DNA from: Mycobacteriaceae bacterium
GTDB taxonomy: Bacteria; Actinomycetota; Actinomycetes; Mycobacteriales; Mycobacteriaceae
Reading direction: 5' to 3'
Assembly: GCA_044222225.1 (NCBI GenBank)
Contig: JBGANR010000020.1
Coordinates: forward strand, 15,768-79,767
Length of the DNA stretch: 64,000 bases
The position numbers and the translations under genes were made by a program. Below, piece after piece: positions 1,653 to 53,678 of the stretch. The notes beneath the pieces are model-generated. The model was not told the origin of the DNA. It saw only the letters and a list, made by a program, of their open reading frames with translations, and ran no database searches. How positions within the stretch are numbered: position 1 is the stretch's first letter; each line of letters starts with the position of its first letter.

Positions 1653-1712
1653 GGCTGTCGGTAGGCCGGGCTTGCACCCTGACGGTGCGGCGCGACACGG
1701 AAGGGATCTGGC

Positions 1713-2327
1713 ATGACGAGCATCGAGGGCGGCGGACGAACGGATGCGCAAGCCCTGCAGGGCACCGCGCGATTCGACGCGACCGGGGATGCCACGTTGA
1801 TGCCGTCGTGGGAGGAACTCGTCGCGGAGCACGCCGACCGTGTCTACCGCTTGGCCTACCGGCTCTCGGGCGATCAGCAGGACGCCGAGGACCTCACCCA
1901 GGAGACGTTCATCCGGGTCTTCAAATCTCTGCAGTCCTACCAGCCCGGCACCTTCGAGGGCTGGCTGCACCGCATCACGACGAACCTGTTCCTGGACATG
2001 GTCCGGCGCCGGGCGCGGATCAGGATGGAGGCTCTGCCGGAGGACTACGACCGGGTGCGCAGCGACGACCCCGATCCCGAGCAGATCTACCACGACGCCA
2101 ACCTCGACGCCGACCTGCAGCGGGCACTCGATGCGCTGGCTCCCGAGTTCCGCGCCGCGATCGTGCTCTGTGACATCGAGGGTCTCTCGTACGACGAGAT
2201 CGCGACCACCCTGGGCGTCAAGCTCGGCACGGTGCGCAGTCGAATCCACCGTGGCCGGGCAGCTCTGCGCGAGCAGTTGGCGGCCGCAGGACACCATTCG
2301 ATGCGCTCGGTGACAGCCGCGATCTGA
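1713..2327 (+). CDS. sigE: ECF RNA polymerase sigma factor SigE
   Basis: 204 aa with ATG start and RBS GGAAGGGA. Sigma-70 region 2 ([14 protein letters not shown]) and region 4 HTH ([25 protein letters not shown]). Followed by an anti-sigma factor, a protease and tatB, as in the mycobacterial sigE locus. Confidence 0.9.
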
Positions 2328-7859: not shown

Positions 7860-9146
7860 TCAGGCGTCCTCCCGATCATCACTGTGGAACTCGATCTCGC
7901 GCCAGTCGCGGGGGAGCAGGTGATCGAGGACGTCGTCGACGGTGACGGCGCCCAGCAGGTGTCCGGAGGTGTCGATGACGGGCCCGCAGACGAGGTTGTA
8001 GCGGGCGAAGTAGCGGGTCACCTCCTCGAGGGGGTCGTCGGGAGCGAGCGTCGGCAGATTCGCGTCGATGATGCCGCTGGCGAGCGTCGCCGGCGGTTCG
8101 CGCAGCAGCGCCTGGAGGTGCACGCAGCCGAGGTAGGTGCCGGTCGGCGTCGCCGTGGGCGGCCGGACGACAAACGCCATGCTCGCGATCGCCGGCGTCA
8201 GATCGGGGTGCCGTGCCCGGGCGAGCGCCTCGGCGACGGTCGTCCGCGCGTCGACGATGAGCGGTTCGGGCGTCATCAGGCCGCCCGCGGTGTCCGGCGA
8301 GTGGATGAGCAGGCGGCGGACGGGTTCGGACTCCTGCGGGTCCATCGTCGCGAGCAGGCTCTCCGCCTGCGCGGCGCCGAGGGCGCCGAGCAGATCGGCG
8401 ACGTCATCGGCGTCCATCGCGTCGAGGATGTGGCCGGCGCGGCGGCGGTCGAGCGTCGTGATGAGTTGACGTTGCTCGTCGACGGGCAGCTCCTGGATGA
8501 CGTCGGCGAGCTTCTCGTCCGACAGCGCGGCGACGAGTTCGGCGCGTCCTCGGGCGGGCAGGTCGTGGAGGGTGTGTGCGACGTCGGCGGGGCGCAGGCC
8601 CTCGAGCTGGTCGAGCAGCGATGCGACGGTCGTCGCGGCGCCGGCGATCTGGCCGGCGGCCAGGCCGTCGACGAGACTCCACTCGACGAGCACGATGTCG
8701 CCGCGGCGCAGGCCGACGCGGGCGGCGCGGACGGCCACCGTTCCGATCGTCCAGTCCCGGGTGCGGCCCTGCTCGATCCGGACGTCGACCACGGCGACGG
8801 TCTGCCCGGCGAGCGCCGGCAGCTCCGGGTCGCGGACCCGGACCCTTGTGCCGACCAGCTGAGCGAGGGCGAACGCCTCGCCGGCGCGCAGATGCAGCGG
8901 GCGCAGCGAGACACTGCCCGTGTTGAGGGTCACGGCGTGCGGATCGACGGCCGTCACCCGCAGCATGGGCACGAAGATCCGTCTGCGCGTGGACAGTTCG
9001 ACGGCGAGACCGAGGACCCGGGGAGGCGTTCTCGTCGCGCGGATCGCGACCACGGCGTCCCGGACGCGGCCGATCGACTCGCCGTCCGGACCGAGGACGG
9101 GCAGTCCGGCGAGGCGCGCCACGAACACCTTGTTTTCGGGGGCCAT
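7860..9146 (-). CDS. cytosolic MgtE-N domain plus tandem CBS domain protein (no transporter TM domain)
   Basis: The acidic MgtE_N-like segment (DEKLADVIQELPVDEQRQLITTLDRRRAGHILDAMDADDVADLL) is followed by CBS-like repeats, with no TM helices. Start taken at the ATG at 9146 (MAPENKVFV); the ATG at 9269 is an alternative. Confidence 0.55.
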   Translation of the reverse strand: MAPENKVFVARLAGLPVLGPDGESIGRVRDAVVAIRATRTPPRVLGLAVELSTRRRIFVPMLRVTAVDPHAVTLNTGSVSLRPLHLRAGEAFALAQLVGTRVRVRDPELPALAGQTVAVVDVRIEQGRTRDWTIGTVAVRAARVGLRRGDIVLVEWSLVDGLAAGQIAGAATTVASLLDQLEGLRPADVAHTLHDLPARGRAELVAALSDEKLADVIQELPVDEQRQLITTLDRRRAGHILDAMDADDVADLLGALGAAQAESLLATMDPQESEPVRRLLIHSPDTAGGLMTPEPLIVDARTTVAEALARARHPDLTPAIASMAFVVRPPTATPTGTYLGCVHLQALLREPPATLASGIIDANLPTLAPDDPLEEVTRYFARYNLVCGPVIDTSGHLLGAVTVDDVLDHLLPRDWREIEFHSDDREDA

Positions 9147-9721: not shown

Positions 9722-10573
9722 CTACTTCTTGCGGGCGGCGATGTCGCGCAGCTCGGTGAGCACCTCGTCGTCCCAGGTGTGACTGCGGATGAGCCGGAAG
9801 CGCTCGCCCGACAACCACATGTACAGCTCGGCGTCGGTCGCGTCGGGCAGGATGTCGGCGCGGCGCGCCATGCGGACGACGGGCAGGAACTCCTCGCCGA
9901 ACCAGCGGCGCGCGACGGTGGGCCGGCCGAGGAACTCGCCGCAGTCCTGGATGAGCCGGAACCCCCAGGCTTCGACGGCCTCGGCCAGCCGGGCGTAGGC
10001 CCACGGGTCGGTCAGCTCGATCGCGGCGCGCTGCGCGTGGTCGAGCGGCACGCGGCTGAGGAACAGCCGGCGATGATCCTTGAGGACGAGGTCGCTGCGC
10101 GCGGTGATCCCCGTCGGGCTCAGCCGGGTGTGCACCTCCGTGACGTAGGCGTCGATCGTCGGGAAGTGGTGGGCCATCGCGATCGACACGCGGTGGTGGC
10201 CGTCGACGACGAAATGCATGTCGCCGATCCGGTAGAGCTCGACGGGCGGCATCGACTCGCCGCGCCGCTGCGCCGCCGCGAGCCGCTGCCAGCGTGCGCG
10301 GGTGCGCGTCGTCGTCGGGCGGAACTTGCGGTCGAACTCGCGGGTGCGGTCGACGCTGCCGACGATCGACGAGACCGGAACCGTCTGCAGCCCGAGGGAG
10401 GTCTCGCCGGTGCGGCCGAGAGCGGCGACGACCTCGTCGAACGGCAGCACGTCGTTGACGTCCGCCGGGTTGCGGGCGATCCAGTTCCGCAGCCTGGCGA
10501 GCTCGGCGCGGCGCCGCTGCCGGGTGAAGTCCGACTGCGCGTCGGCGTCGGGGAAGCCGGTGTCACCCGCCAT
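9722..10573 (-). CDS. ParB/sulfiredoxin-like nuclease-domain protein (DGHHR motif)
   Basis: 283 aa. Contains YRIGDMHFVVDGHHRVSIAM, the ParB/Srx-fold catalytic signature. Its start overlaps the stop of the upstream phosphoesterase gene by 11 nt. Confidence 0.5.
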   Translation of the reverse strand: MAGDTGFPDADAQSDFTRQRRRAELARLRNWIARNPADVNDVLPFDEVVAALGRTGETSLGLQTVPVSSIVGSVDRTREFDRKFRPTTTRTRARWQRLAAAQRRGESMPPVELYRIGDMHFVVDGHHRVSIAMAHHFPTIDAYVTEVHTRLSPTGITARSDLVLKDHRRLFLSRVPLDHAQRAAIELTDPWAYARLAEAVEAWGFRLIQDCGEFLGRPTVARRWFGEEFLPVVRMARRADILPDATDAELYMWLSGERFRLIRSHTWDDEVLTELRDIAARKK

Positions 10574-26900: not shown

Positions 26901-28169
26901 GTGAGTCGACGGCGTGACGGCGGGTCTTCGCGACCGGACGTCGATCAGCCCGGCCTGTTCGATCAGCCGGGTCTGTTCGACATCCCGGGAACCGTCGAAT
27001 CGCCCGCGGTCGACGACGCGCCGTCGGCCGGTGTGGCCGACTCCGTGCGCTTCGTCCACATCGCCGACGCGCAACTCGGCATGACGCGGCGGTTCCTCGG
27101 TGCCGAAGCACAGGCGCGATTCGCCGACGCGAGGCTGTCGGCGTTGGCGCGGGTGGGCGCGCTGGCGGCGTCGGCCGGGGCGGAGTTCGTCGTCGCCGCG
27201 GGCGACGTCTTCGACGCCAATCTCCTGCCGGGCACGGTCGTGCGCCGCGCGCTGGACGTGCTCGCCGGTTTCGACGTGCCGGTGTTCGTGCTGCCGGGCA
27301 ACCACGATCCGTACGACGGTGCGAGCGTCTATCGCTCCGAGGTGTTCCGCGAGGCCTGCCCACCGGGAGTCCGGGTGCTCGCCGACGGCGAGCCGGTCGT
27401 GGTGCGTCCCGGCGTCGAGGTCGTCGGTGCGCCGTGGCACTCCAAGGTCCCGTCGGCGGAGCCGACCGGTGCCACGCTGTCGGCGTTGGAGCCCACGGAC
27501 GGGGTGCGTGTCCTCGTCGCGCACGGCGCCGTCGACGTGCTCGAGCCGGGGGCGTCGTCCTCGGCCGTCGTCGTCGCGGACGTGGAGGCGGCGCTGGCCG
27601 CCGGCGTCGTGCAGTACGCCGCGCTCGGCGACCGTCATTCCGTGACGTCGGTCGGCGATACGGGCCGGATCTGGTATTCGGGTGCACCCGAGGTGACGGC
27701 CTTCGACGACAGGGAGAGCGATTCGGGGCACGCGCTGCTGGTGGACCTCTCGCGGGAACGGGTGCGCGTCGAACGGCATCGGGTCGGCCGGTGGCGGTTC
27801 CGCCGCGTGCGGGCGGACGTCGCCGACAGCGCGGGGTTGCGTCGCGTCGTCGCCGAGCTGGAGGCGATGGCGGACAAGCCCGAGACGGTCGTCTCGCTTG
27901 CCGTGCGGGGCGTCGTCACCGTGGCCGAGCAGGCCGAGTTCGACGCCGCGATCGAGGCGTTCGGCGAGCGGTTCGCGGCGATCCACGTCTGGCGCCGGCA
28001 TCACGATCTTCGGGCCATGCCGGACTTATCGGAGTTCGCCGACCTGGGGTTGCGTGGCTTCGCGGCGGCCGCCGTCGCCGATCTCGTCGCGCGTGGCACG
28101 GACGGCGACGACGCTGCGACCGATGCGCTCGGTCTGCTCTACCGGCTGCGGGCGGAGGTCGCGCGATGA
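26901..28169 (+). CDS. SbcD/Mre11-like metallophosphoesterase (DNA-repair-exonuclease family)
   Basis: Motifs VRFVHIADAQLG, AAGDVFD, VLPGNHD and LVAHG. GTG at 26901 has the best RBS (GAGGGTGAGGGG); the GTG at 27045 would give the canonical N-terminus MRFVH. Stop overlaps the ATG of the downstream ATPase gene (ATGA). Confidence 0.7.
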   Translation: MSRRRDGGSSRPDVDQPGLFDQPGLFDIPGTVESPAVDDAPSAGVADSVRFVHIADAQLGMTRRFLGAEAQARFADARLSALARVGALAASAGAEFVVAAGDVFDANLLPGTVVRRALDVLAGFDVPVFVLPGNHDPYDGASVYRSEVFREACPPGVRVLADGEPVVVRPGVEVVGAPWHSKVPSAEPTGATLSALEPTDGVRVLVAHGAVDVLEPGASSSAVVVADVEAALAAGVVQYAALGDRHSVTSVGDTGRIWYSGAPEVTAFDDRESDSGHALLVDLSRERVRVERHRVGRWRFRRVRADVADSAGLRRVVAELEAMADKPETVVSLAVRGVVTVAEQAEFDAAIEAFGERFAAIHVWRRHHDLRAMPDLSEFADLGLRGFAAAAVADLVARGTDGDDAATDALGLLYRLRAEVAR

Positions 28170-30805
28170 AACTGCATCGATTGGCGGTCCGCGATTTCCG
28201 CGGGGTGGCGACGCGGTCCGTCGATTTTCCGGATGACGGCGTCGTCGTCTTGCAGGGACGCAACGAGGTGGGCAAGTCGTCGCTGGTGGAGGCCCTCGAT
28301 CTGCTGCTGCACACCCGATCGGACTCGACCGCCAAGCGTGTCCGGGACGTCGCACCGCGTGGTCGCGACGTCGGCACGCGCGTCGAGGCGGAGATCACCT
28401 GCGGGCCGCACCGGTTCCACTACGCCAAGCAGTTCAACCGGGGGATGGCGACGGAGCTCGCCGTGTTGCGACCGCAGCCGCGGCAGCTCACCGGGCGGGA
28501 GGCGCACGACTGGGTCGCCGACGTGCTGTCGACGCATGCGGATCCGGATCTGCTGCGGGCTCTGCAGTTCCTCCAGGCCGACGCGCCGACGGCCGACGGC
28601 CTGGGAGGTTCGGCGGCGCTGTCGCGGGCGCTCGACGTCGCCGCGGGCCGGATGGGTGACGACGGCGAGGGCGGCGACCTGCTGGCGGGCGTCGAGGAGG
28701 AGTACCTGCGCTACTACACGCCGACGGGGCGTGAGGCGCGGGAGTTGGCTGAGGCCCGTTCCGCGGTGGTGGCGGCGCGGGCCGAGGTCGCCGCAGCGGA
28801 CGCGGCGGTCCAGGAGGTCGCCCAACTGCTGTCCGACCTCGCGGCGGCGCAGGAGCGGGTGCGGCGGCTCGGGGAGCGGGCCCACGACGTCAAGGGCAGG
28901 CGTGGCGTCGCGGGCCAGGCGCGCGAGGACGTCGAAGGCGGTCGCAGGCGCGCAGAGCACGCCGCCGGTGATGCCAGACTGCGGCACGCCGAACTGACGA
29001 CGGCGGCCGAGCGGGTCCGCCGGCGCGACGAGCTGATGGCCGCGCGGGAGCGAGCCGCAGCGGATCTCGACGCCGCTCGCGGCGAGGCGGAGCGTCTCGA
29101 TCGGGACATCGAGGCGGCCACCGAGGCGCGCGGCGAGGCCGAGCGCCTGGCCGGCGCCGCCGCGCGGGCGGAGATCGCGGCACGCGCCGACCTGACGCGT
29201 GCGCGCGCGGACGTCCGGATGCTCGGGCTCGCGGCCGAGGCGGACGCCGCACGTGCGCAGATCGCCGAGGTCTCGGCGCTCGTCGCCAGGCTGTCGACGC
29301 TCGATGGCCGCCTGGCGGCGGACCGTGCGACGGATGCCCGGCTGCGCCGGCTGCGGGAGGCGGATCGGGAGTGCGACATGCTCGCCGCCCAGCTTCAGGT
29401 GGCGAGCGTCGGCGTCGTCGTGACGGCCGCCGACGGGGGCGAGGTCGTCATCGGCGGCGAGCGGGTCGAACTCGACGGCTCGGCCGGCGCGGAGCGACGC
29501 GTCGCTCGACCGACGGAGATCGAACTGCCCGGCGGCTTCGTCGTCACCGTACGTCCCGCCGAACAGACGGAACGGCTGGCCGAGCGCCTCGCCGACGCCG
29601 ACGCGCGCCGGGCCGAACTGGTCGCCGATGCGGGCGCCGAGAGCGCCGCGGCGGCCGAGGCCGCGAATTCGCGGCGTCGAGCGCTTGTCGCGGATCGCAA
29701 CGAGGTGAGCCGACGGCTCGCGGCGTTCGGTGGAAACGCGGCGATCATGCGGCTGCGGTCGGCGGCCGCAACGGCGGACAAGGCGCTGGAGAACGCGCGC
29801 CTCGTCCGCGACACGTCCGCGGCGCTGCCGGCGGACGCCGACGAGGCGGAGGCGGTGGAGGCGGCCGCCGGCGCCGTGTTCGCAGACGAGCGGGAGACGC
29901 TGGGTTCCGCTCGGTCGGCGGCGTCCGCGGCGCGCGAGCGGGTGTCCGATCTGGTCGAACGGCGAGAGGAACTGCGGCGACGACTCGCCGAACTCGAACG
30001 ACGGGCCGCCGGTGAGGCGTCCGTGGAGGGGAAGGCCGAGCCCGGCGATGACCGGTCCGATGCCGGCCTCGACGCCGCGTTGGCGGAGGCCCGAGCGGCC
30101 CACGAAGCCGCCGCGGCGGCGGCCGAGACGGCCCGCGCCGCCCTGGCCGCGCGCGATCCGGAGGCGGTCGAGCGCGAGTTCGCGGCGGCTGACGCGGCGC
30201 TGGAGGAATGGCGTGTCGAGTGCGAGATCGCCGAGCGCCGAGTCGCCGGCCTGCGGGCCACGATCGCCTTCGCCGGCAATGAGGGACGTCAGGAGCACGC
30301 CGGACTCGCGGCCGCGACGGCTTTCGCGGCGGAGGAGCGGCTGACTGGCGTCGAGCGCCGCGCGCGGGCCGTCACCGCGCTGCGCGAGACGTTGCTGCGG
30401 CACCGCGACGAGGTACGCGCGTCGTACGTCACTCCGTTCGCACGGCAGATCGAGGAGCTCGGCCGTCCGGTTTTCGGCGAGGACTTCCAGGTCGAGGTGG
30501 ACGACGACCTCACCATCCGGTCCCGGACGCTCGGCGGCGTCACCGTCGAGTTCGACCAGCTCTCGGGCGGCGCGCAGGAGCAGCTGGGCATTCTCGCCAG
30601 GCTGGCGTGCGCCGTGCTGGTCGATGCGGACGAGGGCGCGCCGGTCGTCATCGACGACGCTCTCGGTTACAGCGACCCGGACCGGCTCGCGTCGATGGGC
30701 CGCGTCCTGTCGACGGCCGCCGGACGCGCACAGGTCATCGTGCTGACCTGCGATCCGACCCGTTACGCGTCCGTGACGTCGGCGAAGGTCGTTCAGCTCG
30801 CCTGA
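28166..30805 (+). CDS. SbcC/SMC-like AAA ATPase with long coiled coil (nuclease SbcCD subunit C family)
   Basis: 879 aa. N-terminal Walker A (LQGRNEVGKSSLVEAL), about 600 aa of Ala/Arg/Glu-rich predicted coiled coil, then C-terminal ABC signature and Walker B (LSGGAQEQLGILARLA...VVIDDALGYSD). Confidence 0.75.
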   Translation: MKLHRLAVRDFRGVATRSVDFPDDGVVVLQGRNEVGKSSLVEALDLLLHTRSDSTAKRVRDVAPRGRDVGTRVEAEITCGPHRFHYAKQFNRGMATELAVLRPQPRQLTGREAHDWVADVLSTHADPDLLRALQFLQADAPTADGLGGSAALSRALDVAAGRMGDDGEGGDLLAGVEEEYLRYYTPTGREARELAEARSAVVAARAEVAAADAAVQEVAQLLSDLAAAQERVRRLGERAHDVKGRRGVAGQAREDVEGGRRRAEHAAGDARLRHAELTTAAERVRRRDELMAARERAAADLDAARGEAERLDRDIEAATEARGEAERLAGAAARAEIAARADLTRARADVRMLGLAAEADAARAQIAEVSALVARLSTLDGRLAADRATDARLRRLREADRECDMLAAQLQVASVGVVVTAADGGEVVIGGERVELDGSAGAERRVARPTEIELPGGFVVTVRPAEQTERLAERLADADARRAELVADAGAESAAAAEAANSRRRALVADRNEVSRRLAAFGGNAAIMRLRSAAATADKALENARLVRDTSAALPADADEAEAVEAAAGAVFADERETLGSARSAASAARERVSDLVERREELRRRLAELERRAAGEASVEGKAEPGDDRSDAGLDAALAEARAAHEAAAAAAETARAALAARDPEAVEREFAAADAALEEWRVECEIAERRVAGLRATIAFAGNEGRQEHAGLAAATAFAAEERLTGVERRARAVTALRETLLRHRDEVRASYVTPFARQIEELGRPVFGEDFQVEVDDDLTIRSRTLGGVTVEFDQLSGGAQEQLGILARLACAVLVDADEGAPVVIDDALGYSDPDRLASMGRVLSTAAGRAQVIVLTCDPTRYASVTSAKVVQLA

Positions 30806-30834
30806 CCGGCGCGGCCTGAGACGGGGAGTCGACG

Positions 30835-31611
30835 ATGATCGTGGAGCTGAAGACGGCCGGCGAGATCGAGGCGATGGCGGCGGCCGGTGCCGTCGTCGCC
30901 GAATGCCTGGCGGCGGCGCGGGCGGCCGCCGTCCCGGGGGCGTCGACAGCCGATCTCGACGCCGCCGCTGCGGCCGTCATGGCCGCTCGGGGCGCCACGC
31001 CCGCGTTCCGCGGTTATCACCCGGGATGGGCGCCGACGCCGTTCCCCGGCGTCGTCTGCGTATCGGTCGACGACGCCGTCGTCCACGGCATTCCGCGGGT
31101 CGACGCGGTGCTGCGCGACGGTGATCTCGTCAGCATCGACTGCGGCGCGTTCGTCGACGGTTGGTGCGGTGACGCCGCCGTCAGTGTCATCGTCGGCACG
31201 CCCGCGCCTGCAGACGTGGCCCTTGTCGCCGCGACCGAACGTGCGTTGGCCGCGGGCATCGAGGCCGCACGGCCGGGCGGCAGGATGGGTGACATCGGCG
31301 CCGCGATCGACGCCGTCGCCCGCGCCGCGGGCGTCGGCAATCTCGACGACCACGGTGGTCACGGCATCGGACGCGCGATGCACGAGGCGCCGTCGGTGCC
31401 GAACGTCGGCCGACGCGGCGAAGGCCTACGCCTCGTGCCCGGACTCGTCATCGCGATCGAGCCGATGTTCCTGGCCGGGGGATCGGGCGCCTACCGGCAC
31501 GACGCGGACGGCTGGACGATCCGCTCCCGGGACGGCTCACGTGCCGCGCACGCCGAGCACACGGTGGCGATCACGCCGACCGGCCCGCGAGTGCTGACCG
31601 AACGAGGCTAG
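30835..31611 (+). CDS. map: type I methionine aminopeptidase
   Basis: 258 aa. Metal-binding residues in a conserved layout (DCGAFVDGWCGD; HGGHGIG; IAIEPM). Confidence 0.85.
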   Translation: MIVELKTAGEIEAMAAAGAVVAECLAAARAAAVPGASTADLDAAAAAVMAARGATPAFRGYHPGWAPTPFPGVVCVSVDDAVVHGIPRVDAVLRDGDLVSIDCGAFVDGWCGDAAVSVIVGTPAPADVALVAATERALAAGIEAARPGGRMGDIGAAIDAVARAAGVGNLDDHGGHGIGRAMHEAPSVPNVGRRGEGLRLVPGLVIAIEPMFLAGGSGAYRHDADGWTIRSRDGSRAAHAEHTVAITPTGPRVLTERG

Positions 31612-45771: not shown

Positions 45772-45779
45772 TCGCCTTC

Positions 45780-45825
45780 GAATGAGAACGCCCGCACCGG
45801 GAGATCGGTGCGGGCGTTCTCATTC
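45780..45825. terminator. bidirectional terminator hairpin (perfect 20-bp stem, 6-nt loop) between convergent rho and Ser/Thr kinase 1
   Basis: GAATGAGAACGCCCGCACCG-GGAGAT-CGGTGCGGGCGTTCTCATTC. Lies 9 nt after the rho stop and 23 nt after the kinase-1 stop. Confidence 0.65.
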
Positions 45826-45847
45826 GCCGGAGAACCGGCGGGAAAGG

Positions 45848-47518
45848 CTACTCCGGCAGGTAGTCGTCGACGGCCCGGGCGATGTCGGCGAGCCGGCCGC
45901 AGTTCGCCGTGCTGGACTGCTGCAGGCCGATCCACAGCGTGCCGTTGGACGCCGACTTGTAGGCGAGGACGCAGAAACCGGCGGCCGTCGAGTTGGTGTT
46001 CGTCGCGTTGAACTGGCGCCACTTGTCGTTGACGACGCTGGCGGTGCCGCTGTCCCAGTCGGTCGAGTTCTGGAAGGTGGCGAACTTGACGTCGACGTTC
46101 CCGTTCTTGCTGTCGACGCCCTTGCAGGCCCACTTGACGCCGCTGGTGTTGCGCTGTCCGGGGTCGTCGAGGAGCGCCGAGATGCCGAGATTCGTGATGA
46201 CGTCGCTCGGGATCTTGCAGGGATCGATGTAGTTCTCCCGCAGGACGGCGACCTTGTCGATCGACGGCTTCGTCGAGGTGGACGTCGTGGGAGCAGTGGG
46301 CCCCGGGTCGTCCGAGCCGCTGGACATGATGATGACGACGGCGGCGATGACGGCCGCGATGGTGACGACGACCGCGCAGGCGATGAGGACGTTCTTGTTT
46401 CCGGACTTCGCCGGGGGCGTCGGCGACGCCGGCCGCACCGGTTGCGGCTGCTGCCACGACTGCTGCGGGGGGCCGTTCCACGACTGCTGCGGGCCGGACT
46501 GTCCGGTGTATCCCTGATGCGGACCGGCCTGCGTGGGAGGTGACTGGTAATTCGGATGCGGGACCGACGGCTGCGAGCCCGGAGTGATCGGCATCACCGG
46601 CATGGACGGCATCGACGGTCGGCTGATCGGTCCGCGGCCGATGGTGGTGCTGTCCGGAACCGCGCTGGCCGGCAGCGCGGCGTGCGTGCCGGCGGCGGCG
46701 GAGAGGGCCTGGGCGAACGCGCGGCAACTGCCGAAACGCTGCGTCGCGTGCTTGGCCATTCCGCGGGCGATGACGCCGTCGACGGCGGGCGGCAGACCCG
46801 GCCGGTTGTGCGACGGGACGGGCGGAGGGGCCGTCAGATGCTTGCCGATGACGGTGGCGCTGGACGCCGAGCCGAACGGCTTCTGTCCGGTGAGCAGGTG
46901 GACCGCGGTGCACGCGAGGCTGTACTGGTCGGTGCGGCCGTCGAGATGATCGCCGGAGAGCTGCTCGGGCGAGCAGTAGTCGACGGTGCCGACGGTGGTG
47001 CCGATCGCCGTCAGCTCGCTGGGCTCGTCGGCGCGGGCGATGCCGAAGTCGCCGAGCATGATCCGGGGTGTCGATCCGCTGGAATCGATGAGGATGTTGC
47101 CGGGTTTGACGTCGCGGTGCAGCAGCCCCTTGCTGTGCGCGTAGTCGAGGGCGTCCGCGACGGCGTTGATGATGGCGATGACCTGCCCGAGCGGCAGACC
47201 GGCCGGATTCTGCAGGAGCATCGCCGACGCGTCGGGCCCGGGCACGAGCTTCATGCTCATCCAGAGGCGGCCCTCGTCCTCGCCGCGGTCGTAGACGGGC
47301 ACGATGTTCGGGTGGTCGAGCGCACCCGCGAGGTCGGCTTCACGTTCGAAACGGCCGCGATAGGTGTTGTCGTCCGAGAAGCGGTCGGCGAGTACCTTGA
47401 GGGCGTCCGTCCGGGGTAGGCGGGGGTGCCGGGCGGCGTAGACGGCGCCCATGCCGCCGGTGCCGAGGACGCGTTCGATCGTGTATCCGCCGATGACGGC
47501 GCCGGCCGGTTCGGTCAC
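45848..47518 (-). CDS. Ser/Thr protein kinase (PknF/I/J-like) with TM helix and C-terminal four-Cys extracellular domain
   Basis: 556 aa; GTG with a GAGGAGG RBS. Gly-loop LGTGGMGAVY, catalytic HRDVKPGNILI, DFG, and an activation segment TVDYCSPEQ. Pro/Gln-rich linker, a TM helix (VLIACAVVVTIAAVIAAVVIIM), and a roughly 170-aa ectodomain with 4 Cys that ends in DDYLPE. Confidence 0.85.
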   Translation of the reverse strand: MTEPAGAVIGGYTIERVLGTGGMGAVYAARHPRLPRTDALKVLADRFSDDNTYRGRFEREADLAGALDHPNIVPVYDRGEDEGRLWMSMKLVPGPDASAMLLQNPAGLPLGQVIAIINAVADALDYAHSKGLLHRDVKPGNILIDSSGSTPRIMLGDFGIARADEPSELTAIGTTVGTVDYCSPEQLSGDHLDGRTDQYSLACTAVHLLTGQKPFGSASSATVIGKHLTAPPPVPSHNRPGLPPAVDGVIARGMAKHATQRFGSCRAFAQALSAAAGTHAALPASAVPDSTTIGRGPISRPSMPSMPVMPITPGSQPSVPHPNYQSPPTQAGPHQGYTGQSGPQQSWNGPPQQSWQQPQPVRPASPTPPAKSGNKNVLIACAVVVTIAAVIAAVVIIMSSGSDDPGPTAPTTSTSTKPSIDKVAVLRENYIDPCKIPSDVITNLGISALLDDPGQRNTSGVKWACKGVDSKNGNVDVKFATFQNSTDWDSGTASVVNDKWRQFNATNTNSTAAGFCVLAYKSASNGTLWIGLQQSSTANCGRLADIARAVDDYLPE

Positions 47519-47650
47519 CTGAGCCTCCTCGTGTGCTCGACGTCCGCGCTGGCGGACGGGATCTCGGTCCGCGCGCGCGGACGCGAATGGTCGACGTTCA
47601 TGAGCACAGTAGCACTATCTAGTGATCCTTAAACGTCAGGTGATGATCTG

Positions 47651-49603
47651 CTAGTGAGGGAGCACGGTGTCGACCTCGTAGGCGATCGAACTCAGGTCGT
47701 CGCACACGCCTCCGGTGGTGCCTTCGCGCGGCTCGATCGAGATCTCCAGCAGCCCGTCCTCGCCCGGGCCGTCGTAGCCGACGTAGCAGCGGGTCTCCGT
47801 CTTGTAGAGGCGCCAGCCCTGACGGCCCGGCAGCGGTGTCCGGTCCGGCGAGGACCGGCGCTTCGCCGCCTCCGCCGCGCCGTCCGTGCCGCTCCGATGG
47901 ACGACGAAGGACACGGTGTGGTTGCGCAGCTGCGCCACGCACCCCACCTCGGCGGTCGTGAGCGGACCGACGCCGGCCCTGGCCAGCGTGCTGTCCGGGA
48001 TGCGGCACGGGTCCATGACGCCGTCCACGACGATCGTGCCGTTGATCAACGTCCCGCTGGGCTTCGTCCCGGTGGGTGACGTGGGCGTCCCGGTCCCGCT
48101 GGTCGCTCCGGACGTCGTGCTGACGGACGACGTGCCGGGCGGCGCGGCATCGTTCGTCTTGCGCTTCTCGAGGTACACGAACACCCCGGCCACCACGAGT
48201 GCGACGACGAGCACGCCGATGCCGGCGACGAGGCCGCGCCGACGCGTGCTCCGCCGCCCCGGGGCCGGCCGTGCGGCCGGAGTGTGCGGGGCCGGACCGG
48301 CATGGTCACCGGAACCGGACCGGGTCGGCGGAGCCGGCGTCCGGGGTGCCGCGGCGCCGGAGGCATGACGACCGGTGGGCGCCGGCGCCGGGGTCTGTCG
48401 GCGCTGGGTGGGGAACTGCTGCGGCGTCGGATGCCGCGGGGGCGCGGGCGGAGTCATGGCGCCGGCGGTCCGGTGCCGCGGCGGGTGCGCGCCCGACGGC
48501 GTCTTCGTCGTCCGCTGATCCGGCCCGAGCATCGTGGGCTGCGCCTGCGAGGCCGGCGGTGTGCGCGGGCGTCGCGCATCGGCTGCGGGGTTGCCGGGCG
48601 GCGTTCCCGGACCGGGCGCCGGCAGGCGACGTGAGACCGGGGTGCCGGGTCGCGGGAGACCGGGGTGCGGCGACGTCGGGGCGGTCGGCTCGTCCGGCGG
48701 CGACGTCTCGGCCTCGAGGCGTGACGTCGTCCGGTCCGGCAGGCTCGTGCCCGGCACGAACTTGACGGTCGACGGGTCGTCGAGCGCCTCGGCCAGCGCG
48801 GTCGCGAACGCCGCGCACGTCCGGTAGCGGGCCTCGGGCGCCTTGGCCATGGCGCGGCCGATGACGACGTCCGCCGCGGCCGGGGTGTCGCGCCGGAAAC
48901 GGGAGAGCGGTGGCGGCACCGACACCATGTGCTGGCCGATGACCCCCGCCGTGCTCGACGAGTCGAACGGCGGCGCGCCGGTGAGCAGAGTGAAGGCCGT
49001 GCAGGCGAGGCTGTACTGGTCCGACCGGCCGTCGATGTCGCCCCCCGCGAGCTGTTCGGGGGAGCAGTAGTCGACCGTGCCGAGCACCATGCCGGTCGCC
49101 GTCAGTCGCGAGCGGCCGAGCGGTCGCGCGATGCCGAAATCCGAGAGCAGGACGAGCTTGCGCGTTTCGTCGATGAGGATGTTCGCCGGTTTGACGTCCC
49201 GGTGCAGGAGCCCGCGGGCGTGGGCGAAGTCGAGCGCGTCGGCGACGGCGGAGACGATCGAGACCGCGACGGCCGTCGGCAGGCCGTGGGGAGAATCGAC
49301 GAGCATCGCGTCGGCGTCCGTGCCGCGGATGAGTTTCATGCTCATCCAGAGCCGACCGCGGTCGGCGCCGCGGTCGAAGACCTGCAGGATGTGCGGGTGG
49401 TCGAGGTCGGCGGCGATGTCCGCCTCCCGCTCGAACCGCCGCTGGAACTCCGGATCATCCGAGTACTCCGCTGCGAGCACTTTGAGTGCGTCGACCCGCG
49501 GCACGCGGGGATGCCGCGCGGCGTAGACGGTGCCCATCCCCCCGGATCCCAGCACCGATTCGATGCGGTATCCGGAGATGAGGCTCCCGATCGGCTCCGG
49601 CAT
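47651..49603 (-). CDS. Ser/Thr protein kinase (PknF/I/J-like) with TM helix and C-terminal four-Cys extracellular domain
   Basis: Start at the ATG at 49603 (MPEPIGSLISGY) with a GGAGGAA RBS; the 152 codons upstream in the track are a read-through. Same kinase motifs as kinase 1. Long Pro/Arg/Thr-rich linker, a TM helix (LVAGIGVLVVALVVAGVFVYL), and an ectodomain ending in VDTVLPH. Confidence 0.8.
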   Translation of the reverse strand: MPEPIGSLISGYRIESVLGSGGMGTVYAARHPRVPRVDALKVLAAEYSDDPEFQRRFEREADIAADLDHPHILQVFDRGADRGRLWMSMKLIRGTDADAMLVDSPHGLPTAVAVSIVSAVADALDFAHARGLLHRDVKPANILIDETRKLVLLSDFGIARPLGRSRLTATGMVLGTVDYCSPEQLAGGDIDGRSDQYSLACTAFTLLTGAPPFDSSSTAGVIGQHMVSVPPPLSRFRRDTPAAADVVIGRAMAKAPEARYRTCAAFATALAEALDDPSTVKFVPGTSLPDRTTSRLEAETSPPDEPTAPTSPHPGLPRPGTPVSRRLPAPGPGTPPGNPAADARRPRTPPASQAQPTMLGPDQRTTKTPSGAHPPRHRTAGAMTPPAPPRHPTPQQFPTQRRQTPAPAPTGRHASGAAAPRTPAPPTRSGSGDHAGPAPHTPAARPAPGRRSTRRRGLVAGIGVLVVALVVAGVFVYLEKRKTNDAAPPGTSSVSTTSGATSGTGTPTSPTGTKPSGTLINGTIVVDGVMDPCRIPDSTLARAGVGPLTTAEVGCVAQLRNHTVSFVVHRSGTDGAAEAAKRRSSPDRTPLPGRQGWRLYKTETRCYVGYDGPGEDGLLEISIEPREGTTGGVCDDLSSIAYEVDTVLPH

Positions 49604-49749
49604 CGATTCCTCCATCACGAACGGCGTGGCTGGATAGACGCTAGCGCGAGCTCCCGCTGCCGCGCCGCCGCCGTCCAGGGCGGTCGCTGCGCGGCGCCGA
49701 CCACCGTGTGTCGTTTCGCGTATCGGTTCGCCGCCGCCGAACCGGGCTC

Positions 49750-50370
49750 TCATGGCAACGCGGGCGCGAGCGCACGCGCGAGGTCGGGGAGCCGGTCGCA
49801 GATCGGTGTCACTCCGGGCTTCGCGGGAATGAGATAGGTCGAGTCGACCGATTGCAGGACCACGAGGCCGTCGTCGTCGGGCGTCTTGTACATGGCCACG
49901 CACTCGTGCGAGTTCGGGTCGGCGGACAGCCGCCAGGCGGGCATGCCCGGAATCGTCTCCGACGCCCCGGCGTAGCGGGTCCAGTACGACGGATTGCCGT
50001 CGACGGCCCAGGCGCCGATGAAGATCGAGTCGTTCGACGCGGCGTCCGGCGTCCAGCATGAGTTCCCGCCCACCTGTGCGGGCCCGAAGCCGGCGCCGCT
50101 GAGCAGGTCGGCGGGCACCTTGGCGCAGTCGACGACGCCCGCCGTGACGAACGACGGCCGCTGCGCGACCGAGGAGGACGGCGCGGTGGAGGCCGGCGTC
50201 GTCGCGGCCGTCCCGCCGCCGGGCGGCGTGGTGGTCGTCGCGATTCCCGGCGTGCTCGACGACGACGACGCGGCGGCGCCGTCGTTCCCGGTGCCCGTGC
50301 AGGCGGCGGAAAGGGTGGCGACGGTGAGCAGACCGGCAGCGGCGGCGGCGCGGGTGCGGAAGACGGACAT
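49750..50370 (-). CDS. lipoprotein that is a free-standing paralogue of the kinase four-Cys ectodomain
   Basis: 206 aa; ATG with a GAGGAG RBS. Signal peptide plus lipobox (LLTVATLSAAC), a Ser/Thr/Pro-rich spacer, then a domain sharing the motifs DC.K.P ... C ... GMPAWRL ... C.A.Y ... ICD ... LA.ALP with the kinase ectodomains. Confidence 0.75.
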   Translation of the reverse strand: MSVFRTRAAAAAGLLTVATLSAACTGTGNDGAAASSSSSTPGIATTTTPPGGGTAATTPASTAPSSSVAQRPSFVTAGVVDCAKVPADLLSGAGFGPAQVGGNSCWTPDAASNDSIFIGAWAVDGNPSYWTRYAGASETIPGMPAWRLSADPNSHECVAMYKTPDDDGLVVLQSVDSTYLIPAKPGVTPICDRLPDLARALAPALP

Positions 50371-50424
50371 GGCGGGCTCCTCGGGTTCTGGTGGTCGTGT
50401 GGGCGCTTCGTCGGGCGGGTGAGG

Positions 50425-51057
50425 TCAGGGCAGGACGGTGTCGACGGCGTGTGCGATGTCGGCGCGGCGATCGCAGAGCGAGACGAGCTCGCCGGGGAGG
50501 GGATCGGTCTGGACGCCGAACTCGATGTAGTAGAAGGCGCTTCCGTCCGGGGCGTCGTACCCGGCGAAGCAGCTCAGCTCGTCTCCGTAGAGGCGCCAGC
50601 CGGCGAGCCCGGGCACGATGTCGGCGCCGGTCGCCGCGAATGCGGCGCGGGCTTCCGGTCCCTTGCCCGGCGCGACGATGTTGATGTGCCCGTAGTTCGG
50701 GCGCACGCCGGCCTGATTGAGTGCCGGATCGCTGATCTCGCAGGTGTCGTCACCGCCGCTCTGCTGATGCAGCCCGATGCGGGCCAGCGGCTCTTCGAGG
50801 AGCTCGCAGTTGGGGCCCGTGCCGTCGCGGAGCACGAGGTTGGCGCCGGCGTGTCGAGCGGGGGCGCTCGTCGGGGTCGTCGTCCCGGATGTCGTGGACG
50901 TCTGCGGGGCGCCGCCCGGCGCGCTGGACGTGGGCGTGCCGGAGCTGCTGGCGGCCGTATCGGATCCACCGGCGTCGCACGCCGAGAGCGACAGTGCCGA
51001 GAGCGCGGCCGCAATCGTCAGTCCGGCGGCGAGACGGCGGGATGCGGTGATGGCCAT
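50425..51057 (-). CDS. lipoprotein, second free-standing paralogue of the kinase four-Cys ectodomain
   Basis: Start at the ATG at 51057 (MAITASRRLAAGLTIAAALSALSLSAC, a lipobox) with a GGAGG RBS. Domain motifs NCELL ... TCEIS ... GLAGWRLYGD ... CFAGYDAPDGSAFYYIEF ... LCDRRADIAHAVDTVLP align with kinases 2 and 3 and with lipoprotein A. Confidence 0.75.
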   Translation of the reverse strand: MAITASRRLAAGLTIAAALSALSLSACDAGGSDTAASSSGTPTSSAPGGAPQTSTTSGTTTPTSAPARHAGANLVLRDGTGPNCELLEEPLARIGLHQQSGGDDTCEISDPALNQAGVRPNYGHINIVAPGKGPEARAAFAATGADIVPGLAGWRLYGDELSCFAGYDAPDGSAFYYIEFGVQTDPLPGELVSLCDRRADIAHAVDTVLP

Positions 51058-51118
51058 GGCGGACCTCCAGATCGAACGTGTGATGTACCAAGGAAATCGT
51101 CTGCCGACTGCCTCGTGA

Positions 51119-51141
51119 GGGCATCGGTAGTCGACTACTCG
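51119..51141. promoter_or_regulatory. conserved 23-nt motif GGGCATCGGTAGTCGACTACTCG (perfect palindrome GTAGTCGACTAC at 51127-51138) upstream of lipoprotein B
   Basis: Matches 22 of 23 nt of a second copy at 53380-53402. Lies 62-84 nt upstream of the lipoprotein B start codon. Confidence 0.5.
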
Positions 51142-51259
51142 AACGACGCGCGCCGGATCGGACGGGCCAAACGTGAGGCCCCACAACGGACCGCAGACGC
51201 ACATCGCGCCGGCCGCGGACTGCGGCCGGCGCGATGCGTCGGATCGGGTCGGAGCCCGC

Positions 51260-53311
51260 TCAGTGGGTCGGCTGGGGCGTCTGGGTCTGGTTCGCCGTCG
51301 TCTGGTGAGGCGTCGTCTGAGTGGTCGTGGGTTCCCAGGTCGTCGTCGGCGGCGTCGTGTGGGTCGTGGTCGGCTTCCACGTCGTCGTCGGGCAGTCGTG
51401 GGTGCAGCCGTAGGTGGTCGTCGGCGGCGGCGTCCACGTCGGCTCCGGCGTGTACGTCGGCTGTGGCGCCGCGGTGGTGGTGGCAGCGGCCGCGACGGCC
51501 GGCGGCAGTACGCCGCTCACGGCACGGGCGACGTTCGTCAGGGCGTCGCAGATGCTCTCGGAGCTGGAGGCGTAGTGCATGGAGAGTTCCAGCAGACCGG
51601 TGTCCTTCGCTCCGGCGTAGCCGACGAAGCAGTCCGTCGCATCCTTGAAGTGCCGCCAGCCGGGCACGCCGGACAGCGGTTCACCGCCGGTGAAGCGTGC
51701 CCACGCCTCCTCGTCCTTCCCGGCCGGATGAACGTCGAACGAGACGGCGTGGCCGCCGTCGACGGTCGTCGCGATGCACCCGGTGTCGGTCGTCTTGAAC
51801 TCCTGCAGCCCGGCCGCGGTGAGCACCGACTGCGGGATCTTGCAGGCGTTCATGACGCCTTCGTCGACGATCGTCTCGCCGTCGGGCGCCGGTGCCGGGA
51901 GCGGACGCGTCGACGTCGACTCGGTGGCCGACGACGGGGTCGTCTCGGCCGACGTCGTGGCTGTCGTAGCCGTGTCGGTGCCTTCGTTGTTCTTCGACAC
52001 GAGGATGTAGCCGCCGGCCCCGAACGCGACGAGGGCCGCGACCGCGAGCGACAGCAACAACAGCGGCCCCCGGCGCGACCGGGGCTCGCCCGGACGCGGC
52101 CCTCCGCCGCCCGGCGGTGGCGGCGGGAACGGCGGCGGAGCGGCCGTCGGCGGCATCGTCTGCCGTCGGGTGGCACCGTCGGCCGGGCCTGAACGCCCGA
52201 CGAGAGCCGGGCCGCGTATCTCGGTGGCCGAATCGTCGAATCCGCCGGGCACATCGGTCGTGCGCCGCCGCATCTGCTGGTGCATCGGCGGCCGGGTGGG
52301 CGTCCGGGGCGGCATCGCGGCCGTCGGATCGTCGAGGTACTCGGTCGCGGGGTCGAGCACCGGCAGGGGCTGCGACGGCGGCGGCGCGTCGAACGCGGCG
52401 CGCAGGGCGTCGGCGAAATCGCTGCAGCGCGCGAACCGGTCGTCCGGCTCCTTGGCCATCGCGCGCGCCAGCACGGCGTCGACGGCCGCCGGGGTGTCCG
52501 GACGGAACTGCGAGATCCGCGGCGGCTCGGACACCATGTGCTGGCCGATGACGCCGGCGTTGCTCGGCGCGTCGAACGGCGCCCGGCCGGTGAACAGCGC
52601 GAACGCCGTGCACGTGAGGCTGTACTGGTCGGCGCGGCCGTCGAGCGGCGAGCCGGTGAGCTGCTCCGGCGAGCAGTAGTCGACGGTGCCGATCGTCATT
52701 CCCGTGGCCGTCAGCCGCGTCCGCCCCATCGGGCGGGCGATGCCGAAGTCCGCCAGCAGCACCTGACGTCCCTGGTCGGCGATGAGGATGTTCGCGGGCT
52801 TGACGTCGCGGTGCAGCAGATTACGCCGATGCGCGTAGTCGAGGGCGCGGGCGACGGCGTCGATGATCGTCAGCGCGGAGGTGACGTCGAGGCCCTGGGG
52901 CGAGCGGTGGAGCAGCGCCTCGGCGTCCGTGCCGCGGACGAGCTTCATGCTCATCCACAGTCGGCCGTGGTCCTCGCCGCGGTCGAAGACCTGCAGGATG
53001 TGCGGGTGGTCGAGGTCGGCGGCGATGTCGGCCTCGCGTTCGAACCGGGCGCGGAACTCGGGATCGGCCGAGTACTGCTCGGCGAGCACCTTGAGCGCGT
53101 CGATGCGCGGCACCCGAGGATGGCGCGCGGCGTAGACGGTGCCCATGCCGCCCGCCCCGAGCGTCGAGAGCACGCGGTATCCGGAGATCGTCATGGCCGC
53201 CGGCCCGAGCGCGGTGCCGGGCCCCGTGGTGAGGTCGGCTCCGTAGGTCTCGTCCGGCGACGGACCGCGCCCCTGTCCGGGGCCCGCGGGGGGACTGCTC
53301 GGCATGATCAC
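51260..53311 (-). CDS. Ser/Thr protein kinase (PknF/I/J-like) with TM helix, four-Cys extracellular domain and Thr/Pro/Trp-rich C-terminal tail
   Basis: 683 aa (GTG at 53311; an ATG at 53305 has a GGAG RBS). Kinase motifs as in kinases 1 and 2. TM helix (LLLLSLAVAALVAFGAGGYILV). Ectodomain ending in ARAVSGVLP. Followed by an approximately 80-aa tail rich in PTTTW repeats with a CTHDC motif. Confidence 0.85.
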   Translation of the reverse strand: MIMPSSPPAGPGQGRGPSPDETYGADLTTGPGTALGPAAMTISGYRVLSTLGAGGMGTVYAARHPRVPRIDALKVLAEQYSADPEFRARFEREADIAADLDHPHILQVFDRGEDHGRLWMSMKLVRGTDAEALLHRSPQGLDVTSALTIIDAVARALDYAHRRNLLHRDVKPANILIADQGRQVLLADFGIARPMGRTRLTATGMTIGTVDYCSPEQLTGSPLDGRADQYSLTCTAFALFTGRAPFDAPSNAGVIGQHMVSEPPRISQFRPDTPAAVDAVLARAMAKEPDDRFARCSDFADALRAAFDAPPPSQPLPVLDPATEYLDDPTAAMPPRTPTRPPMHQQMRRRTTDVPGGFDDSATEIRGPALVGRSGPADGATRRQTMPPTAAPPPFPPPPPGGGGPRPGEPRSRRGPLLLLSLAVAALVAFGAGGYILVSKNNEGTDTATTATTSAETTPSSATESTSTRPLPAPAPDGETIVDEGVMNACKIPQSVLTAAGLQEFKTTDTGCIATTVDGGHAVSFDVHPAGKDEEAWARFTGGEPLSGVPGWRHFKDATDCFVGYAGAKDTGLLELSMHYASSSESICDALTNVARAVSGVLPPAVAAAATTTAAPQPTYTPEPTWTPPPTTTYGCTHDCPTTTWKPTTTHTTPPTTTWEPTTTQTTPHQTTANQTQTPQPTH

Positions 53312-53379
53312 TCCATCAGGTCGCTGGGACGGACGCGGGCCGCGCCTGTCGATCCAATCGTCAGACGTTCGCCCCGGGT

Positions 53380-53402
53380 GGGCATCAGTAGTCGACTACT
53401 CG
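53380..53402. promoter_or_regulatory. conserved 23-nt motif GGGCATCAGTAGTCGACTACTCG (perfect 14-bp palindrome AGTAGTCGACTACT at 53387-53400) upstream of kinase 3, within the kinase-3 / rpmE divergent region
   Basis: Second copy of the motif found at 51119-51141. Lies 69-91 nt upstream of the kinase-3 start. Confidence 0.5.
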
Positions 53403-53678
53403 TCTCGATCATCCGCTCGAGACGCGCCGGCGGTGCAACGGGAATGCGACCGGCCCGAGCGGTGTTCAACCGGTGGCCGACGATTGGAGACGTCGGTGCC
53501 CGTCTGGCATGATCGACGGGTCAATCGCTCCAACAGCACATCTTCAGTCCGGTTCCGGTTCACACCGTGCCGCCACGTCCGTGAGCAGGTTCTCGATTGC
53601 GCCGACCATACGGTGCGACGGGGGCCGATGCGCAACGGAATCGGCGGGCGGTGACCCGGAGCCATGAAAGGGACACCA

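Follow-up and report, generated by a model that had tools for sequence, protein, structure and literature searches.

A putative operator-promoter module shared by a sensor kinase gene and a lipoprotein gene of a Mycobacteriaceae bacterium recurs in other mycobacteria-like bacteria

Two copies of a palindromic motif in a kinase/lipoprotein island

The DNA analyzed here is a 64-kb window (64,000 nucleotides) from a Mycobacteriaceae bacterium (assembly GCA_044222225.1, contig JBGANR010000020.1, positions 15,768 to 79,767 of the forward strand), and coordinates given without a locus name are those of this window. It has a GC content of ~71% and holds the conserved Mycobacteriales block hom, thrB, rho, rpmE, prfA, prmC, sua5, a family-4 glycosyltransferase gene and the atp operon, as well as sigE, htrA and kgd. 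In Mycobacterium tuberculosis, rpmE follows directly after rho; here the two are separated by five minus-strand genes (45848-53305): kinase 3, lipoprotein B, lipoprotein A, kinase 2 and kinase 1. Our subject is a 23-nt motif with a perfectly palindromic core that lies upstream of two of them, kinase 3 and lipoprotein B, in the following setting:

53380-53402, minus strand: motif copy 1, 23 nt, CGAGTAGTCGACTACTGATGCCC in gene orientation, upstream of kinase 3
51119-51141, minus strand: motif copy 2, CGAGTAGTCGACTACCGATGCCC in gene orientation, upstream of lipoprotein B
53388-53399, no strand assigned: 12-bp perfect palindrome GTAGTCGACTAC of copy 1, putative site of a regulator dimer
51127-51138, no strand assigned: 12-bp perfect palindrome GTAGTCGACTAC of copy 2, putative dimer site as judged from sequence
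51260-53305, minus strand: kinase 3, a Ser/Thr kinase (Pfam Pkinase, 1.5e-39) with a transmembrane segment and an extracytoplasmic Cys-containing domain
50425-51057, minus strand: lipoprotein B, signal peptide with LSAC lipobox, gene call identical in four public assemblies
49750-50370, minus strand: lipoprotein A, 54 nt downstream of lipoprotein B with GAGGAG between them
51201-51237, minus strand: terminator-like GC hairpin after the kinase 3 stop codon (fold z -4.6 and -2.75)

Both 23-mers were recovered where the initial annotation had placed them and agree at 22 of 23 positions, reading GGGCATCAGTAGTCGACTACTCG (53380-53402) and GGGCATCGGTAGTCGACTACTCG (51119-51141) on the plus strand. The two downstream genes are on the minus strand, and in their orientation the general motif is CGAGTAGTCGACTACYGATGCCC. 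A search of the window with up to three mismatches returned this pair and nothing else, with an expectation of 0.00 matches from 100 dinucleotide-preserving shuffles; the copy count of two applies to the 64-kb window. The cores are perfect palindromes of 14 bp in copy 1 (AGTAGTCGACTACT, 53387-53400) and 12 bp in copy 2, as had been reported, with a dyad geometry of AGTAG-N4-CTACT that sets the half-site centers ~9 bp, or about one helical turn, apart. The flanks had also been described as similar, and this similarity beyond the 23-mer was borne out over a longer stretch than claimed: repeat analysis (family D14) aligned 47 nt at 81% identity, 51095-51141 with 53356-53402. The 47-nt unit extends toward the genes and its similarity breaks off sharply at the far side; its structure is GTAGTCGACTAC-N-GATGCC-N18-GACGAT, oriented to the minus-strand genes. 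Coding sequence was rejected as the nature of the motif, with one copy read through and the other meeting a stop. In a strain variant 98.9% identical to this DNA, three single-nucleotide polymorphisms fall in the intergenic region between kinase 3 and lipoprotein B, farther upstream, and none in the module.

Copy 2 lies 62-84 nt upstream of the lipoprotein B start codon (ATG 51057), in agreement with the initial annotation. Copy 1 is likewise upstream of kinase 3, but the distance of 69-91 nt first given for it assumes a GTG start at 53311; the ATG at 53305 is the likelier start because it is preceded by a properly spaced GGAG, and it places the motif 75-97 nt upstream. Since a strong hairpin follows kinase 3, lipoprotein B needs its own promoter, and copy 2 is located where that promoter should be. 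The lipoprotein B and A genes are probably co-transcribed, given the 54-nt gap, the GAGGAG and the lack of a hairpin between them.

The five proteins of the island have in common an extracytoplasmic domain of ~130 residues, with a conserved Cys, GWR, C..GY and a C-terminal ..IA.AV..LP, for which no Pfam match was obtained. Pfam assigned three Pkinase genes to the cluster, with rpmE and prfA on its other side; the three kinase domains are 70-83% identical at the DNA level. No DNA-binding protein was found by Pfam among the cluster proteins, consistent with the earlier remark that the cluster encodes no regulator, and the window as a whole offers no plausible cognate: its only regulators are a sigE-like extracytoplasmic function (ECF) sigma factor with its anti-sigma factor and a TetR protein. 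A word-based search returned no homologs of lipoprotein B, and the PrfA encoded in the window is at most 83-84% identical to the PrfA of Rhodococcus, Williamsia and Gordonia, which leaves no close genome for footprinting.

On the opposite side of copy 1, an L31-Actinobacteria ribosomal protein leader (RF03158; 53549-53663, plus strand; 34.1 bits against a gathering threshold of 35, E 4e-4) lies directly upstream of rpmE and is the only Rfam match in the region. Because this match begins at ~53549, the rpmE transcript starts at or before that position. The suggestion that copy 1 might also act on the rpmE-prfA promoter finds no support: the module faces in the opposite direction from rpmE, and ~150 nt separate it from the start of the leader.

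Four further features of the surrounding DNA were recorded. The intergenic region between kinase 2 and kinase 1 (47519-47650, minus strand) is partly AT-rich (CTGACGTTTAAGGATCACTAGATAGTGCTACTGTGCTCATGAACGTCGAC) and folds better than its shuffles (z -2.8); it might combine a terminator with a separate kinase 1 promoter. Between the convergent rho and kinase 1 genes, a 28-nt inverted repeat (45772-45833; 89% complementary, 6-nt loop) is probably a bidirectional terminator. A 945-codon open reading frame on the minus strand (28142-30976) has coding-like GC3 and no Pfam domain. The 9-mer GACGATTGG at 53354-53362, near copy 1, recurs in inverted form at 53479-53487, 117 nt away on the rpmE side, which could be due to chance or reflect part of the rpmE promoter.

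A recurrent module with fixed spacing

An exact-pattern scan of 185,579 species genomes (one per species), a set that does not include the source genome, yielded one real match, in a Mycobacterium metagenome-assembled genome (locus L005), where an intergenic site identical to copy 1 over 24 nt, including five bases outside the pattern, points at the gene for a large AAA+ regulator. The second match, in a gammaproteobacterium (L006), lies inside coding sequence and was discarded as chance. A scan of metagenomes gave five matches, one of which (L008), inside a Rieske-type gene, was also attributed to chance; the other four (L007, L009, L010 and L011) are intergenic, on contigs of 71-76% GC, and each faces a downstream gene. 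The pattern that generalizes the module is GTAGNNNNCTAC-N-GAYGMC-N18-[GT]ANNNT. Its palindrome is longest in L007, where CAGTAG-N4-CTACTG spans 16 bp.

The distance from module to start codon is constant in several of these loci. In L007 and L010, which are orthologous contigs, the ATG of a 378-residue protein is exactly 30 nt past GATGCC, and L009 has exactly the same distance between the hexamer and the GTG start of a gene for a glycine-rich PGRS-like protein. On the other strand of L007 and L010, a second, degenerate palindrome 49 nt upstream (GTAGCGAGCTAC and GTAGCCCGCTAC, respectively, each followed by t-GACGAC) precedes a divergent membrane-protein gene whose ATG is again exactly 30 nt past its GACGAC hexamer. 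The start codon therefore occupies the same position in three independent promoters, which points to leaderless transcripts with the start codon as +1. On this numbering the palindrome would occupy -49 to -38 (center -43.5), the hexamer -36 to -31 and a further box -12 to -7. L011 was considered as a leaderless case and rejected: its ATG at +1 is out of frame, and frame analysis puts the true start, that of a gene for a large, secreted, protease-like protein, 49 nt downstream.

The further box has a fixed offset as well. Of 12 non-redundant sites, 9 show a [G/T]AnnnT motif that begins exactly 26 nt past the palindrome, and every other offset, on both sides, is shared by fewer than 3 sites (mean per offset, 0.23); this offset and the divergent second palindromes are features that lay outside the search patterns. 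Across the aligned sites the boxes and their spacer are conserved as GAYGMC-N18-GAYGNT, and the most information-rich columns of the 14-site alignment are those of the dyad GTAG-N4-CTAC. From the alignment, and for the transcription starts from the 30-nt spacing between hexamer and start codon seen in the leaderless relatives, we predict the following elements in the window:

53381-53386, minus strand: -35-like hexamer GATGCC of copy 1 (-36 to -31; consensus GAYGMC in 14 aligned sites)
51120-51125, minus strand: -35-like hexamer GATGCC of copy 2 (from the 14-site alignment)
53357-53362, minus strand: -10-like hexamer GACGAT of copy 1, 18 nt past GATGCC (-12 to -7); contained in the 9-mer GACGATTGG
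51096-51101, minus strand: -10-like hexamer GACGAT of copy 2, with the same 18-nt spacer as copy 1
53350, minus strand: predicted transcription start (G) of copy 1, giving a 45-nt leader with GGAG before ATG 53305
51089, minus strand: predicted transcription start (G) of copy 2, giving a 32-nt leader with GGAGG before ATG 51057

A matrix built exclusively from sites outside the window scored copy 1 at 41.3 bits and copy 2 at 36.9 bits; the next-best site in the window reached 7.0 bits, and the maximum over 20 simulated windows was 18.1 bits. The initial annotation had asked whether other genes of the cluster are also preceded by copies. In the window there are exactly two sites, and the matrix scan found no weaker copy before lipoprotein A, kinase 2, kinase 1 or the sigE-like gene.

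Several of the related loci encode large ATP-binding LuxR-type (LAL) regulators. In L009, an 869-residue protein with AAA_16 and GerE (LuxR-type) domains ends 20 nt upstream of the motif, and the gene downstream of the L005 motif encodes a homolog of it (32% identity over 585 residues, 2e-61). Further LAL loci were then fetched by homology to the L009 protein, independently of the motif. Where the LAL homologs are 59-65% identical (L012, L013 and L020), the palindrome recurs beside PGRS-like genes, unchanged or altered at one position; its flanks are kept as well, although the surrounding intergenic DNA has diverged. A degenerate copy in L021 (Mycolicibacter heraklionensis, CP080997), with GACGCT at the right offset, lies 32 nt upstream, or by another count ~70 nt upstream, of a 1976-residue gene adjoining the LAL gene, which occupies 537.7-540.4 kb. 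Since the chance expectation for the palindrome in the fetched LAL-locus DNA is only ~0.1, as estimated from base composition, the association between motif and LAL loci appears real, although it could stem from linkage to the PGRS-like gene instead of the LAL gene. Taken across loci, the module faces the downstream gene in nearly all cases and is conserved upstream of orthologs despite diverged intergenic flanks, both in L009, L012 and L020 (LAL and PGRS-like genes) and between L007 and L010.

Two small coding regions were noted at these loci. A 34-codon open reading frame of L005 (6084-6188, plus strand; MEGFAAIPETCRWAWIYSECRNACGRANWPVG) lies between the motif and the LAL gene; its start is 10 nt downstream of the predicted +1, and it could serve as an upstream open reading frame. 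A gene for a protein of 70-72 residues is found directly upstream of the LAL gene in L017 (5754-5966), L021 (9744-9962) and L023 (7756-7968). Pfam assigns no family to its product, and in L017 and L023 a cluster of DUF4189 genes lies close by.

Regulatory model and alternative explanations

The fixed spacing between palindrome and boxes, the gene-ward orientation and the start codons at +1 agree with the initial proposal of an operator for a dimeric protein in a shared promoter element. We consider it likely that the two copies form the upstream halves of operator-plus-promoter modules recognized by a dimeric regulator, through which kinase 3 and the lipoprotein B-lipoprotein A unit would be co-regulated. 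The module is previously undescribed and recurs in other mycobacteria-like bacteria. In the proposed mechanism, a dimeric helix-turn-helix regulator encoded outside the window would bind the 12-14 bp palindrome centered near -43.5, which abuts a poor -35-like box (GATGCC, -36 to -31), itself followed after the 18-nt spacer by a non-canonical -10-like box (GACGAT, -12 to -7). So bound, it would control RNA polymerase at both promoters and thereby kinase 3 and the lipoprotein B-lipoprotein A unit, possibly with read-through into kinase 2. The kinase 3 and lipoprotein genes are thus very probably switched together by one regulator encoded elsewhere. The logic of position makes an activator more likely than a repressor: the -35-like box bears little resemblance to TTGACA, and the site borders it on the upstream side, an arrangement typical of class II activation. 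The architecture of the sequence, its recurrence and its constant geometry are observed in this model; we infer where transcription starts, that a protein binds, whether it activates or represses, and which regulator it is.

Several results weigh against it. The +1 positions are taken from leaderless relatives, and the window genes would have leaders of 32-45 nt. Most sites were obtained with patterns demanding the palindrome together with GATG(CC), so that the coupling of the two is partly made by the search. In L013, both copies (8458-8469 and 10201-10212) are inverted relative to two tandem PGRS-like genes, unlike in the orthologous loci L009, L012 and L020, where the motif is forward, and a promoter acting in one direction does not explain this inversion. 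The L013 forward promoters are well formed, with GACGAT and GATCAT at the right offset, and point into the 3' end of the preceding gene; transcription from them would enter the LAL gene and the first PGRS-like gene in the antisense direction. Toward the genes, the palindrome lies between a box resembling TCGACA and one reading CATTTT; the L013 site may act both ways, or L013 may make antisense transcripts. As to the regulator, LAL homologs of 51-55% identity (L016, L017 and L023) are not accompanied by a convincing site, and the 64-kb window encodes no LAL, GerE or AAA_16 protein and no plausible cognate regulator. Finally, the first -10 position is G in most sites, which is odd for the housekeeping sigma factor, whose -10 element is TAnnnT, and leaves room for an alternative sigma factor.

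Among the other explanations, the one that fares best is a repressor operator, in which a dimer at -49 to -38 would block polymerase at the -35/UP region and induction would follow its release. Perfect dyad symmetry fits such a protein, and the inverted L013 palindromes, set between the TCGACA-like and CATTTT boxes, are in what we read as a classical repressor position. Most palindromes, however, lie upstream of the core promoter and not over it, and the weak core elements suggest, by position, a need for an activator, so that we regard repression as unlikely.

An alternative, for instance ECF-type, sigma factor would make GAYGMC and GAYGNT its own -35 and -10 elements, the palindrome being accessory or coincidental and co-regulation arising through sigma. 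The strict 18-nt spacer, a -10-like box that mostly begins with G and not T, and a -35-like box unrelated to TTGACA are all in keeping with this, yet the richest information in the alignment is in a dyad upstream of the -35, where sigma factors do not read dyads. ECF promoters typically show AAC in the -35 and CGT in the -10 element, signatures that these boxes lack. The sigE-like gene of the window (1683-2324) has no such site upstream, and no sigma gene adjoins the motif in any related locus examined. We regard an alternative sigma factor as unlikely, a little more so than a repressor.

The remaining explanations are far less probable. The island consists of paralogs, with three similar kinase domains and a common extracytoplasmic domain, and its two motif copies might be a non-functional remnant of local duplication or gene conversion. 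Against this, the coding 5' ends beside the copies are non-homologous (a kinase N-terminus and a signal peptide), the similarity ends sharply at the module edges, the other three paralogs carry no motif, and the module also occurs in unrelated taxa before unrelated genes; we regard a remnant as very unlikely. Even less credible is a dispersed repeat of the REP (repetitive extragenic palindrome) or MITE (miniature inverted-repeat transposable element) kind, or the end of a mobile element. A short palindrome in intergenic DNA is what such a repeat would look like, and the initial annotation had named a widespread family of this type as the outcome that would undo its reading. Copy number and positional bias speak otherwise: there are two copies in 64 kb and one real plus one chance match among the species genomes, orientation and distance relative to genes, -10-like box and start codons are strict, and hairpin stability is no greater than in shuffles. 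The repeat analysis reported no flanking inverted repeats around either copy, and no module match was found in viral contigs and phages; plasmids gave chance-level matches only, among them an unrelated hairpin on a Streptomyces plasmid (H7). Least probable of all is an RNA-level element, a leader hairpin or small RNA, since the 5-bp stem with a 4-nt loop that the palindrome could form is set against fold energies of both leaders and antisense strands that resemble shuffles (the kinase 3 terminator hairpin excepted), the lack of an Rfam match at either copy, and a palindrome that lies upstream of the transcript in leaderless relatives.

If the palindrome is the operator of a dimeric regulator, position logic and gene neighborhood point, if weakly, to the LAL (MalT-like) family as the best candidate for that regulator. 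A broader reading, which we find possible though on balance improbable, is that the sites belong to a hitherto unrecognized class of activator-dependent promoters that spans genera of the Mycobacteriales and of other high-GC actinobacteria, read by STAND-type LAL regulators via the GTAG-N4-CTAC dyad at -43.5 and driving cell-surface or exported proteins. Such promoters would then serve receptor Ser/Thr kinases, lipoproteins, PGRS-like glycine-rich proteins and a secreted protease, and the whole sensor-kinase/lipoprotein island described here would be under one ATP-dependent switch.

In mycobacteria and their relatives, operators beyond those of the well-studied global regulators are poorly charted, and to our knowledge most of the many LAL-type regulators of these bacteria have no known binding site. 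The analysis provides an exact sequence model (palindrome, -35-like and -10-like boxes and their spacings), two predicted transcription starts (G 53350 and G 51089), a candidate regulator family and a set of independent loci, some of them in mycobacteria that can be cultivated (Mycolicibacter heraklionensis, for example). In the genome studied here, one sensor kinase and two lipoproteins with a common extracytoplasmic domain are probably expressed together, which is a clue to a signaling module of unknown function.

Comparison with known operators

Operators of FadR-subfamily GntR regulators follow TnGT-N(0-3)-ACnA, a skeleton that TAGT-CG-ACTA matches; no GntR gene, however, lies near any copy. 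A string search of the literature did not find the exact 12-mer GTAGTCGACTAC; a match involving NtcA was irrelevant, the string being printed 3'-5'. The sole sequence-level match to the palindrome in that search was the footprint of AesR (NCgl0019) of Corynebacterium glutamicum, also a member of the Mycobacteriales, which contains CATAGTCGACTAC (PMC13413800). In the AesR operator this string is a mere junction between tandem 15-bp palindromes (ACTATG-N3-CATAGT, CG, ACTAC-N5-ATAGT), and the operator lies between -35 and -10 as an autorepressor site beside the regulator's own gene (PMC13413800). A double operator of the AesR type (ACTATG-N3-CATAGT with CGACTA-N7-TAGTYG) was therefore considered for the present module and rejected, as the outer half-sites are absent in 14 of 14 aligned sites.

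In position, the module resembles the sites of LuxR-family class II activators, where a helix-turn-helix dimer binds a dyad that adjoins or overlaps a weak -35 element and has its center ~42-44 nt upstream of the start. The lux box and the tra box, for example, are centered near -42.5. The palindromes of the type found in the window are shorter (12-16 bp, against 18-20 bp for lux and tra boxes) and lack CTG-N10-CAG, and no LuxR protein of the acyl-homoserine-lactone type is involved here.

LAL and LuxR regulators bind palindromes or MalT boxes of the form GGA[TG]GA (PMC9628970), and at a LAL-dependent promoter of Rhodococcus the activator repeats extend from -79 to -37, overlapping the -35 element (PMC6099782). 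The sites of MalT and of TpdR, the regulator at the Rhodococcus jostii PTTMP promoter, are direct repeats, whereas the dominant feature here is an inverted repeat, and the window itself encodes no LAL, the link to this family being one of gene neighborhood. A LAL gene adjoins the motif in L005, L009, L012, L013, L020 and L021. The -35-like hexamer with its preceding base reads GGATGA at the first L013 site (L013a) and GGATGC or GGACGA at other sites, forms that are close to the MalT box GGA[TG]GA (PMC9628970); the window copies read TGATGC and CGATGC. The TpdR repeats, too, reach into the -35 region (PMC6099782).

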